A stretch of DNA of 64,000 nucleotides from Paraspadella gotoi. Its lineage: Eukaryota > Animalia > Chaetognatha. The stretch covers positions 13,321,039-13,385,038 of the forward strand of contig CM119271.1 of the NCBI GenBank assembly GCA_051294375.1. The letters run 5' to 3'. Of this stretch, positions 32,520 through 37,116 are shown piece by piece (the first letter of the stretch is position 1; the number at the start of each line of letters is the position of its first letter). A program made the position numbers and the translations under genes. The notes beneath the pieces are model-generated. The model saw nothing but the letters and a program-made list of their open reading frames with translations. It made no database searches and was not told the origin of the DNA.

Positions 32520-33552
32520 CCTTCTCCTCCTCTTCCTCCTCCACCTTTTCCAGAAAGCCGCCTCCATCCGCGAGGAGCACGCCCGCGAGGCTCAAGTCAG
32601 CGGCGCCATCGCCACCGACATCAAATCCTTGGACACGAAGGCCGCCAACGCCGCCGTCGCCCTCACGGATCTCGAGCGGACCATCGTGGCGGAGAGGAAC
32701 AAGTTGACGAGCGAGTTGAAGCACGCCAAGGAGGTCATGAGTCAGGACAAGGTCAACATGCAGAAGGAGTTGGCCGACATGAAGGACAAAGTGGCGCAGG
32801 CTTCCGGAGGTAAGGGGAATGGATGGATGGATGGATGGATGGATGGATGGATGGATGGATGGATGGATGGATGGATGGATGGATGGATGGATGGATGAAG
32901 GAATTAATTAATGAATGAATGAATCAATGAATGTATAAAATATTAATGAATAAATAGATAAACTAATGAATCAATCAATCAATCCATCAATCATTCAATG
33001 ACTGAAAGAATTAATTAATGAATGATTGAATAATTGAATAAATATATGAAGTAACAAACGACTCCATTATAGAATTTTAAAATTATAAAACATAGTAGTT
33101 TAACAGTTGGGTTTTCTTTCCTTGGGGCTACAGTGTGCTCCTGTGTAGTACAAAGAATCACATTGTCTTTAACGTCTGAACGACGATTACAATGAGCGAC
33201 TTGATTGTAATATACTTCGCTTTTCTGATGTCATTTAATTTTAAAATTAAAATGTACGACAATGACGGAAGATTCCAAAGCACGAATTTCTTGACAACCA
33301 CTCAAACTTCCACATCTTCCAAAAAAACCAGGCTACACCGGATTGAAGAACCGCGCCATCTCGGCCGAGGCTGACAAGTTGAAGGGCGAGATCTTCTACG
33401 ATCGGCTGAAGATTGATAACTCGTTTGGACAAAGCGGCCACGAGCTTTTGAGGGAGAAGCACGAAATGTGGCAATCCATCTCCGTGAGTAAAACAAAACT
33501 GTTTTGATTTTTTTGGTTTTTTTGTTTTGTTTGGAATCGGTGTGGTGAAGAC

Positions 33553-33602
<50 letters not shown>

Positions 33603-33615
33603 CTCCTCTCTCTGG

Positions 33616-33649
<34 letters not shown>

Positions 33650-33708
33650 CTCTCCCTCTTTGTCTTTATCTATCTTTCTTTCTTTTTGAGCTTGCGATCT
33701 GTCTTCTT

Positions 33709-33751
<43 letters not shown>

Positions 33752-33785
33752 CTCTCTCTCTCTTTTTTTCTCTCTCTCTGCTCTC

Positions 33786-33828
<43 letters not shown>

Positions 33829-33992
33829 TCTCTCTCTCTCTCTCTCTCCATTTCGTTCAATTTCACAACTCAAAACCATAATCGTTCTCGGTCAGAGAGA
33901 GATAGAGCGAGAGAGCGAGACAATCGTTCCAGCCACACCGGCTAATTGTTCTTTACAAAAAGCATGCTCGGCTAAACTCTGGCTTCAGATTT

Positions 33993-34023
<31 letters not shown>

Positions 34024-37000
34024 AAAAAAAGCAAAAAAAAAAAGCGAGAAGAAAGACTGTGAGGAGAGACGACGGTTTTTTGTGTCCAGGCAATTAGGCT
34101 TCCCCCGCCTCCACCTTATTCTGATGGAGATTTGAGATTCTATTGAATAACAAAAAAAAATATATATCTCAGCTAAGTGAGTGTTGACTATATTTGCCCT
34201 TTTTAAAAAAAAGGTTGTTTTTGGAAATACATTTTTCTAGTATTATTAAAAATAAACAAAATATTCTTACTTAAATTCTTAATCCAGGACATTCAGCTTC
34301 CTCCTCCCCCGCCGTATCTTGACGAAGAAATTTATAATTATCTCCGTTACTGATCGCAACTTGAGTTAAAATCGAATGCAATCACTAATTAACCGATTGC
34401 AACTTCGATTTTTTTTTTGGGCATTTTAGGTAAAAATGTAATAATCTTTCGAGATGCGGTTCGCTCTATTTTTCTACCCATTTTTTTTTTCAGAACTAAA
34501 GATAGAATTCTTAATAACAAAACTTTAAAATTCAACACTTGCTTAGTTTTGAGAAATTAAATTAAATTGTTTTTTTAAAAAAGAAAGAAGCCGTTATTAT
34601 TTCCAGAGGCAACGACACATTTTTTTTTGTGATACTGCATTCTATGCTTGGTTCTCAAAATCCACCTGTGTTTTGTTTTTTTTTCTCTCTAACGTTACAA
34701 TAGCAAAAATAAAAAAGATATATTCACCCTTAACAAATCGCTATAAAAAAATTAAAAGGAAAAAAAAAAACTGCATGTATTTCTCAAATTTCTTTCTTTC
34801 CGATTGAGACCATATCCAGAATGCTTGGTCCGGCCGTAATATTTCTGAATTCTGAAGTTAACAGCATCTAAAAAAAATAAAGGGGGGTGTTAAGATCGGA
34901 ACCAGGCATAGTATGTAAATAAAAAAAAACCTAAGAATATAACAATATAAATATTAATAATTAAATTGACAGTTCTACCGTCGTCAGTTGGATTCAACTC
35001 GAGCTCCAACTTCTCTGCCCTTTTAAAAAAACAACAAAACACAATCATTTTGACTCTCAAAACAAAAAAAAACAAAACAAACAAAAAAACGCAACCACGA
35101 AAACGAAACTTGCCTTCTCCAAACAAAAAAAAACACTCTCCAACCTTTGATCTTTATCCTGATATTTATCGCCCAAAATGTTCAGTTTAACAAACAATGT
35201 CGATGGATGCACGAAAGATACTTGGCAGCCATAATTGAGGGCTAGGTGAGAGACAGAGACAAAGAGAGAGAGAGAGAGAAGAAAAGATACTTTCTCTCTT
35301 TTGTTCGTGTTTTTTTTTTCAAAAATACATTCTTGACGTGATAAAATTAGTTATTGGTTTGAATCAGAATTCAGGTTTATGCTAAAAACCCGTTCGTTCT
35401 TTCTGGATATGCTCTCTCGACAGAATATTAACAAAAAAAAAACATTAACCACTTTTAAATTACTCATTATATCCCATAACTTATAACAATGTCGATTTGT
35501 TACGCGGTTTAAGATAAACCTGATTTACTGATCATCATTTTTTCTTCATACTAAAAAACTTTGAAACGTACAAAAGATATTTTTTTCTTTATTAAAAAGA
35601 AAATATCGTTTGTGTTTGCCAAATTTTGCCAAAAACGTGACAAGCATGTTTGCCGTATCACAAGATTCGTATCACAGTTGATTCGCTTTAAAACTTATCT
35701 ATTGTAAAATGTAATCGTTTTTCTTCGTTGTCTTGAAGTGACTTGTGAAAAAGAAAACTAAAAAGGTCGCCCTGTGAAAAACTTATCACATCTTTTGTTT
35801 GCAGGAATTACAATCGACCATCACATCTGAGCTCATGAGGGCGGCTCGTCTTCAGCAGGAGGGAGTAGAAGTGAGTCTTTGTTTTTTATATTTTGATAAT
35901 TGTTAGTAAACTGTCTCAAATCAAATTTAAATATACATTATTAATGCAAAATTAGTGATGCTATTTCTCATAACAGCTTCTTCACATTTAGGTTTCTTCT
36001 GCTGAGGAGGGCGCCTTACTGAAGCTTTATTATAAGGTGAGGAATTGTTTAGTGTATCTATTTTACTGAAGAGTGAATAACATTGCGTATTTGCGTTTAA
36101 AATGAAAATTATTATTATTTATAATTATTATTATTATTATTATTATTATTATTTATTGACTTGCATGGACAAAATAAAGAAAAGTTTACCTTTACAGAAC
36201 CCAGGGAGTTAACCATTTACAAACATTTTGTCTAATAACTGTTTTTAAAAAATGTGTCAACGCGACAAAGAATAGTCCACCTTCTTAATCGTGATATTAG
36301 TGAAACCAAATACAAACCATAACACTGCTATATGCAAATTAGCTTAAGGGTCATTTCGTAAATCGACGATTGTCAAATCAAAAGTCAAGACGCATTTGGA
36401 TTTAAATATCAAAGATTAAACCACAAAATGACTTTAGTTTCTTATCAAATTTCCAAGAAATTAAACTATACAGTAGGGTAGAGAGATGAAAAGATTGAGC
36501 GATTGAACATAAGTTTTTTGCTGCTTATGGACATGTAATTAATGAATTTTAAATCTTTTAAAAATTTTTGTAAGCATAGCAGTATAGTAAATTAAATTAT
36601 TTATGTAGTAATATCCTTATAAAATCATAAAATTTCAAAATAATTTTTTTTTAAACAGATTTTTAAACAAAACTAAAACTTTTATAATGTTTAGACCACA
36701 AAAAATGATTAAAACCTTTTAACATATATAAGTTTTTACTACAGATAATTTTTACCTTTTTCCTCATTTTAAATGCTGAAGATAACATAATTTTTGATAA
36801 CATATTTTATATTTTTGATTTAACATTTTATGAAGAATCTGAATCTTTATTAAAAGTTTTTAAAAAAATATTTTTAAAATTTATTATTTTATAAGAATAT
36901 TACTATAAATATATTGTATTTTACTATTTTGTTCCCGAGACAATATGAACAAAATATTTTTTATACTAGTTAATCATGCTATCTCACGTCTAAATATCCT

Positions 37001-37116
37001 TGTTTGATCATTCAAATAATTTTTTTATTCTTGAGTGCTCCACTCTACTATACGGTATGTCTCTTTTTTTACAGATGCAACATTACGTCAACTACAGATT
37101 GGCCAGATATCGTTAA
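27145..37116 (+). CDS. Myosin II heavy chain-like, short-tailed: motor, 2 IQ, ~245-aa coiled-coil tail. Exons 27145-27388, 27775-27833 (internally deleted here), ~28138-29418, 29645-29835, 30227-30315, 30658-30839, 31160-31359, 31967-32138, 32554-32809, 33332-33483, 35805-35870, 35992-36036, 37075-37116
   Basis: Motifs [95 protein letters not shown] junctions phase-compatible from 29645 onward; TAA at 37114-37116 followed by AATAAA (~37192, ~37202); some indels in the large motor exon. Confidence 0.88.
28965..29168. other. Assembly gap (~204 N) inside the motor exon; true size about 0
   Basis: Flanks read IDFGMD / [10 protein letters not shown], which are contiguous in the inverted copy at ~15870-15910. 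Confidence 0.85.
29464..29630 (+). repeat. Imperfect (TTCA)n microsatellite in a myosin intron
   Basis: Repeated ATTC units. Confidence 0.9.
32818..32897 (+). repeat. (GGAT)n microsatellite in a myosin intron (also at ~1608-1699)
   Basis: Direct tandem GGAT units. Confidence 0.95.
33896..33994 (+). CDS. Candidate alternative terminal exon A of myosin ([32 protein letters not shown])
   Basis: CAG acceptor after a long (CT)n tract, phase 0 matching the donor at 33484, stop followed by an A-rich tract. Confidence 0.5.
34090..34146 (+). CDS. Candidate alternative terminal exon B of myosin ([18 protein letters not shown])
   Basis: TTTTTTGTGTCCAG acceptor, phase 0, TGA then A-run; paralogous to exon C. 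Confidence 0.6.
   Translation, partial: AIRLPPPPPYSDGDLRFY
34288..34353 (+). CDS. Candidate alternative terminal exon C of myosin ([21 protein letters not shown])
   Basis: TTCTTAATCCAG acceptor, phase 0; shares I.LPPPPPY with exon B through synonymous codon differences. Confidence 0.6.
   Translation, partial: DIQLPPPPPYLDEEIYNYLRY
34973..35026 (+). CDS. Candidate alternative terminal exon D of myosin ([17 protein letters not shown])
   Basis: TTGACAG acceptor, phase 0, GC-richer island ending in TAA plus an A-rich tract. Confidence 0.45.
   Translation, partial: FYRRQLDSTRAPTSLPF
35186..35245 (+). CDS. Candidate alternative exon E of myosin ([19 protein letters not shown])
   Basis: TTCAG acceptor, phase 0, TAG immediately followed by a GTGAG donor-like site. 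Confidence 0.45.
   Translation, partial: FNKQCRWMHERYLAAIIEG
35375..35431 (+). CDS. Candidate alternative terminal exon F of myosin ([18 protein letters not shown])
   Basis: TTCAG acceptor, phase 0, TAA followed by an A-run. Confidence 0.45.
   Translation, partial: VYAKNPFVLSGYALSTEY

Follow-up and report, generated by a model that had tools for sequence, protein, structure and literature searches.

Five conserved C-terminal endings behind one splice donor in a short-tailed, striated-type myosin gene of the chaetognath Paraspadella gotoi

Here, we analyze a 64,000-nucleotide window of the Paraspadella gotoi genome (contig CM119271.1, positions 13,321,039 to 13,385,038, forward strand) and identify in it a myosin gene with five conserved C-terminal endings that share the phase-0 donor GTGAGT at 33484 (all positions are those of the window). 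Two of the splice junctions from this donor, and the onward join of one ending to the exons behind it, are observed. The gene probably encodes a myosin of ~1,030 to 1,070 residues in which a striated-type head is followed by a short coiled coil and no rod, and in which one donor serves five acceptors to supply tips that are likely interchangeable binders. It is almost certain that the five endings are spliced, there is a good chance that the four single-exon cassettes among them share one 3' end, and we lean slightly toward the tips acting as selectors of partners or anchors. The original prediction for this stretch, made from the DNA letters, had placed the same phase-0 donor at 33484 and proposed eight or nine alternative terminal exons on one motor. 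The array is real, but it is smaller than first claimed, with five endings supported; the absence of a rod, by which the protein is no ordinary myosin II, had been missed.

Behind the donor, the original prediction had listed seven islands (here E1 to E7) and a three-exon distal ending (here D). Direct reading agrees with it on the place of each island, the AG that leads it, its open frame and its translation, and D is open across its three exons and closes with a stop. The islands were also said to be GC-richer than the intron (0.32), and the values are 0.42 to 0.46 in E1 to E5, 0.37 in E6 and 0.33 in E7. In 33860 to 35790, 12 of 21 CAG sites open at least 17 codons, compared with 4 of 22 for eight introns elsewhere in this gene; the length of an open reading frame is unselective in this stretch, and outside evidence is therefore needed to recognize endings.

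This evidence comes from relatives of the protein. A search with one tail exon found 33 relatives among 629 candidates, and further searches and clusters brought the set to 372 proteins, of which 264 have the junction motif and 188 belong, by sequence pattern, to the subfamily of the window protein; a profile search of a 50% library gave 65 hits and 56 new proteins, i.e., 428 in all. Their sources are labelled jgi, ena and merc, the last of which we take to be a marine eukaryote transcript catalogue. When the AG-led open reading frames of the intron were scored from their first residue against 125 distinct tails of the relatives, five of 64 scored 66 to 91 and the next best scored 16. The five open at 35186, 34288, 34090, 35805 and 34973 and thus correspond to E5, E3, E2, D and E4. 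After the junction, the 188 subfamily proteins carry E4 (65), E5 (51), D (45), E2 (9) or E3 (8), and the remainder comprises three tails in which the polyproline endings are blended, either one with the other or with the start of D, three other tails and four read-throughs of the donor. The last are short proteins, all on ENA contigs and likely genomic gene calls, and the original proposal of a further ending by read-through is overstated. E2 to E5 have 17 to 21 residues and are strongly conserved; E2 and E3 share a polyproline core, in which the polyproline-Tyr sequence is invariant across relatives, and E4, E5 and D are unlike them. E3 is likely a duplicate of E2. The candidates at 33896, 35375 and 35645 (E1, E6 and E7) are unsupported as endings, with scores of 1, 0 and 4 against the relatives' tails and no counterpart among the 428 proteins. 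The E1 region (33896 to 34058) has a pyrimidine-rich acceptor, a donor-like GTGAGG at 34059 and no homologue. E1 may be a species-specific cassette.

Splicing was read from one run, X1, whose RNA status is guessed (0.14 of words; 11 contigs placed on 33860 to 36100). Neither the donor exon nor the last distal exon falls within the stretch compared with X1. Junctions are therefore taken from loose ends, and the last of the distal junctions is beyond the stretch; cover is zero at E2, E3, E4 and E6, the two later distal exons do not appear, and X1 is silent on all of these. Contig depths (240 and 145) carry no weight here as measures of expression. X1 holds the junctions 33483 to 35186 and 33483 to 35805: the end of exon 33332–33483 is the loose end at both acceptors, and the same point matches that at which the relatives switch endings. 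The original prediction was to be abandoned if only the junction 33483 to 35805 appeared or if relatives kept neither frame nor peptide; the junction to 35186 is present as well, and five endings score 66 to 91. In addition, X1 record 5 places 35186–35243 beside 35803–35834 and contains no further letters, so that 35245 is joined to 35805. Because the stop of E5 directly precedes the donor at 35246 and this contig continues into 35805, E5 is an internal cassette that bears a stop and lies ahead of a shared 3' end. The distal exons, which the junction 33483 to 35805 joins straight to the donor exon, are its 3' untranslated region (UTR) when it is included. A last exon with its own poly(A) site has no splicing downstream of it, and E5 does; it had thus been wrongly described as a terminal exon. 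Inclusion and skipping of E5 both occur in X1, which fits an optional stop-bearing exon of the arthropod Mhc type. Each of the exons bears a stop and all can be skipped, and the array therefore differs from a mutually exclusive cluster, in which exons are internal, preserve the frame and are included exactly one at a time. At E7, a low-depth X1 contig (35623–35782) crosses the acceptor unspliced, and at E1 two X1 loose ends differ from the donor exon.

E2, E3 and E4 are predicted to be stop-bearing cassettes too, and would share the distal exons and the poly(A) site with E5. The donor GTGAGT at 34177 is the predicted end of the E2 cassette and the donor-like site at 34430 that of the E3 cassette; between the E4 stop and the donor of E5 there is no donor-like site, and E4 is predicted to extend to the donor at 35246. 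Splicing from 33484 to one of five acceptors would set the C-terminal peptide, with the first cassette included determining the tip and the skipping of all cassettes giving the 50-residue distal ending.

What defines muscle myosin II is its long rod, the part from which thick filaments are built. In the 11 of 11 family members scanned here, Pfam Myosin_N and Myosin_head are present and Myosin_tail_1 is absent, and full-length relatives end at ~1,030 to 1,070 residues. The head is that of a striated myosin II: the closest solved sequences are striated myosins II (855 to 973 bits, versus at most 697 for smooth and non-muscle myosins), the best solved-structure matches are squid 3i5f, scallop and MYH7, which rank above fly by a small distance, and the top hits of an Atlas search are class II. 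Among 178 full-length relatives, the P-loop is intact in 176, switch I in 178 and switch II in 177, and all 178 have a Gly after the relay-loop Asp-Phe, which we take to be the class II glycine insertion at position 507. Class II myosins have an N-terminal SH3-like domain and, by definition, a long coiled-coil tail (PMC3502136), and such a tail is present in all muscle Myo2 proteins of shrimp (PMC6537884). Here, the SH3-like domain is found (Myosin_N on a window exon and in 11 of 11 family members), and in place of a long tail with light meromyosin there are ~175 residues of heptads and then a stop. In the 174 residues before the junction, the hydrophobic period is 3.54 in five of five relatives, a value reached by none of 300 shuffles of each, and the relatives' tails are 17 to 26% alanine. 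A model of the tail predicts one long helix that a turn separates from a second, short one (mean predicted local distance difference test, pLDDT, 88; predicted template modeling score, pTM, 0.34). The tail has no match among solved myosin rods at E up to 1 by sequence or profile, its model has none in a fold search at E 0.001, and an Atlas search with it gives only generic coiled-coil hits, under 0.9; a dimer prediction for the tail, made with no use of the alignment, scored 0.01 and carries no weight either way. Because Myosin_tail_1 is absent, the tail has ~175 residues and solved rods do not match it, we file the protein, judged by its sequence, as class II-derived and set apart from conventional class II members.

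A coiled coil of 25 heptads would give a two-headed motor like heavy meromyosin that forms no canonical thick filament, and the tip would then decide where and to what this motor is anchored. E2 and E3 bear a PPxY-type polyproline motif, which is a ligand of WW domains, and these two tips may pick partners through it. One motor with several spliced C-terminal peptides, as originally proposed, is borne out by the X1 junctions, by relatives with identical bodies and by the conserved tails; the tips may function in targeting or cargo binding. In a wider reading, which we hold to be somewhat less likely than not, one abundant marine animal lineage has derived from muscle myosin II a family of motors that are natural counterparts of heavy meromyosin and have no thick filament of their own, and a splice switchboard of conserved tips plugs the same motor into different anchors; this would be an undescribed myosin subclass and contractile design. 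The gene combines a head with intact catalytic motifs and a short tail in a family of several paralogous subfamilies, and if the tips choose partners, nature has performed a swap experiment on a myosin II head outside the thick filament.

Two alternatives concern what the tips do. The tips might tune self-assembly, either into small bipolar or side-polar assemblies or by packing onto filaments of other proteins. Vertebrate SM1/SM2 tailpieces change filament assembly (PMC2173570), the distal ending prolongs the predicted tail helix and adds a second helix in the model, and a helix with the aromatic-x-His-x-Arg pattern of E5 recurs in other subfamilies. We consider self-assembly rather unlikely for a protein with no rod and no Myosin_tail_1, with a tail that matches no solved myosin rod and with polyproline tips that would be poor candidates for helical packing. 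The tips could instead control the amount of the motor, with the PPxY tips as degrons for WW-domain ubiquitin ligases and the cassettes altering the 3' UTR and mRNA stability. The invariant polyproline-Tyr core would fit this, as would the standing of E2 and E3 as the rarest classes (9 and 8 of 188) and the introns that cassette inclusion leaves after the stop. However, the commonest classes, E4, E5 and D, have no such motif and are nevertheless conserved at the level of single residues, and counts of database proteins differ from expression levels; control of amount is accordingly an improbable main function.

With a shared 3' end, the predicted inserts are 60 bases for E5, 87 for E2, 142 for E3 and 273 for E4, and transcript lengths were compared in seven clusters of relatives. 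In the two best-sampled subfamily clusters, a single contig is shorter than the one with the distal ending; E5 and E2 contigs exceed this distal form by 23 to 118 bases and E4 contigs by 220 to 369 bases, which is close to the inserts predicted for these three. Three clusters from other subfamilies have the distal form as their shortest or almost shortest member when two much shorter contigs are ignored. This pattern supports a shared 3' end, short of proof. By contrast, an array of genuine terminal exons, as many as eight or nine with a poly(A) site apiece, is highly unlikely. A-rich tracts follow several of the stops, AATAAA occurs at 34251, 34708, 34876 and 34918, and E2, E3 and E4 show no onward junction in X1, which has no cover there; but E5 is spliced on to 35805, strong donors follow E2 and E5, and E1, E6 and E7 are unmatched among the 428 proteins.

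The endings are linked to one body by P0096, P0102, P0104, P0108 and P0109, in which none of 1,017 body residues differs and which between them carry all five endings; among groups that share identical last 150 body residues, 22 of 148 hold at least two ending classes. Several points weigh against our interpretation. Mixed-sample assemblies are the source of the relatives' proteins, and they join head and tail halves many-to-many; because chimeras occur, as these joins and five tails that mix two endings indicate, an identical body alone is no proof. X1 is a single run of guessed RNA status, and of the five junctions it shows two. For E5, the onward join was read from the contig table, the joint listing being empty, one joint row having been dropped at repeats and five pieces lying beyond the listing. 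In the length comparison, one E4 contig in each best-sampled cluster is shorter than the distal form, one E4 contig with a differing body (+561) was left out of the comparison, the third cluster gives a mixed picture and the distal form is missing from the fourth. The chimeric assemblies of the relatives affect neither the genomic order of the five endings in the window nor the X1 junctions. Although the scaffold has noisy duplicates and the relatives' assemblies are chimeric, a merging of endings from separate paralogues by misassembly of transcripts or genome is barely credible, since the five endings stand in order, in phase and behind canonical acceptors in one 3.6 kb stretch, a noisy copy keeps the same order, and two X1 junctions match the window with no other letters. 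Alternative 5' halves on one 3' half were considered because relatives share tails and differ in heads; this idea was rejected, as heads and tails are joined many-to-many and across subfamilies, and the break often falls 80 residues ahead of the next intron.

The family divides into several subfamilies, and the window protein falls into that of the 188 proteins (83% identical to P0080 over 363 columns). At least two other subfamilies also alternate between a related distal ending and short endings of their own, and the switch point appears common to subfamilies. Because 10 of the 56 new proteins continue from the junction with Val followed by unconserved sequence, the pattern expected if a GT donor is read through, the switch point is likely older than the subfamilies. 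Many of the short endings in other subfamilies (P0150, P0165, P0116, P0144 and P0183) have an aromatic-x-His-x-Arg pattern like E5; this recurrence suggests that the ancestral pair consisted of E5 and the distal ending.

The splicing device is a variant of one known from insect, annelid and mollusc Mhc genes. In Drosophila, the optional penultimate exon of Mhc1 is exon 18. In arthropods, Mhc1 has one such optional, mostly untranslated exon, which alters the C-terminus of muscle myosin and codes for 1 to 13 unconserved residues (PMC2257972). The likeness lies in an optional stop-bearing exon before shared last exons, seen here for E5 and predicted for E2 to E4; the arthropod gene has one such exon, 1 to 13 unconserved residues and a full rod, whereas the gene described here has four, 17 to 21 conserved residues and no rod. 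Capitella teleta Mhc and Lottia gigantea Mhc6, compared by description only, are described as ordinary muscle Mhc genes, in contrast to five outcomes and a ~175-residue tail. SM1 and SM2 of smooth muscle are spliced C-termini of one motor with 43 versus 9 unique residues (PMC2173570); they are two forms in the smooth-muscle lineage with a full rod and altered filaments, unlike five endings on a rod-less, striated-type protein. Toxoplasma myosin B/C (class XIV) arises from one gene with alternative tails that differ in localization and solubility (PMC2198869) and serves as a functional model for the proposed tips, but it belongs to an unrelated class with two tails and no myosin II-type coiled-coil dimer. 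With the striated myosins II (squid 3i5f, scallop, MYH7), the protein shares the SH3-like domain, motor and neck, and it differs from them by a short, Ala-rich tail in place of a long rod. A full-text literature search, with subscription journals and CyMoBase outside its scope and papers represented by excerpts, found neither a natural rod-less muscle myosin II nor a five-ending exon set; the excerpted text of a large myosin survey mentions no rod-less muscle myosin, and its species table has no chaetognath entry (PMC5583752); and four supplements of PMC3912159 gave no motif hits. The short-tailed myosin family may be undescribed.

Table 1. Features of the myosin gene and its copies in the window
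Feature	Positions	Strand	Evidence or remark
Conserved element, likely untranslated first exon	4898..4938	+	37/42 columns match 5' end of relative transcript L001 (L001 20–61)
First coding exon of myosin	5600..5743	+	Translation resembles relatives' N-termini
Myosin_N exon	19035..19190	+	Pfam Myosin_N, E 7.9e-14
Motor and neck exons	27145..31359	+	Pfam Myosin_head on three exons; 87–98% identity to relatives; GT-AG borders from 29645 on
Short coiled-coil tail, two exons	31967–32138, 32554–32809	+	67% and 73% identity to relatives; heptad period 3.54
Last constitutive exon	33332..33483	+	Ends at phase-0 donor 33484; source exon for all endings
Candidate ending E1	33896..33994	+	Unsupported; starts in GA repeat; score 1 when compared with the tails of relatives
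Ending E2, polyproline-Tyr peptide, 18 residues, stop at 34146	34090..34176	+	Score 81; 9/188 subfamily proteins
Ending E3, polyproline-Tyr peptide, 21 residues, stop at 34353	34288..34429	+	Score 89; 8/188
Ending E4, 17 residues, LPF at end	34973..35026	+	Score 66; 65/188
Ending E5, 19 residues, stop directly before donor 35246	35186..35245	+	Score 91; 51/188; X1 junctions
Candidate ending E6	35375..35431	+	Unsupported; score 0
Candidate ending E7	35645..35707	+	Unsupported; score 4
Distal ending D, three exons, 50 residues	35805–35870, 35992–36036, 37075–37116	+	Open, stop at end; matches end of L001
Indel-rich copy of 31244–35964	1..4743	+	Likely raw long-read sequence in scaffold
Inverted indel-rich copy of ~27050–35964	8699..18191	-	Likely same artefact
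Second inverted, noisier copy of ~27050–33555	19403..27047	-	Sequence comparison

Three indel-rich copies of the gene (Table 1) are 78 to 93% identical to the main copy. Across the cassette region, the copy at 2.6 to 4.7 kb and the inverted copy at 8.7 to 11 kb agree at 2,130 of 2,130 compared bases; relative to the main copy, both show 72 substitutions and 71 gap columns, which also affect constitutive exons, including that at 35805. The copies are likely raw long-read sequence or assembly artefacts rather than paralogues. Because the exon at 35805 is hit as well and two copies are letter-identical, their indels, which the original prediction had counted as a weakness of the ending exons, are no evidence against these exons. 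The motor and neck region contains assembly errors at 27.8 to 29.0 kb. A gap of 204 N (28965–29168) lies inside an exon; it is likely spurious because the inverted copy runs straight across it. At 27775–27830, the main copy is short by roughly 200 bases of the P-loop exon that are present in a noisy copy, and the donor exon 33332–33483 has small compensating indels relative to L001; faulty assembly seems to account for both.

The likely untranslated first exon has a TATA-like box just upstream and a donor at 4964. Its 42-base element, likely in the 5' UTR, is kept (37/42) in L001. Because the coding DNA of L001 has diverged while the element is kept, its conservation suggests a regulatory site at 4898–4938.

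The window also contains, on the plus strand, a pancreatic-lipase-type gene with a poly-Gly insert (40797–43400; Pfam Lipase on two exons) and, on the minus strand, a protein kinase gene (51600–55750; Pfam Pkinase on two exons) that is DYRK-like by eye. Fragments at 44600–46200 and 58820–58930 resemble, by eye, a broken ABC-transporter gene; one piece was scanned and gave no Pfam hit. A degenerate, short-period tandem satellite of ~2.5 kb occupies 48600–51110.

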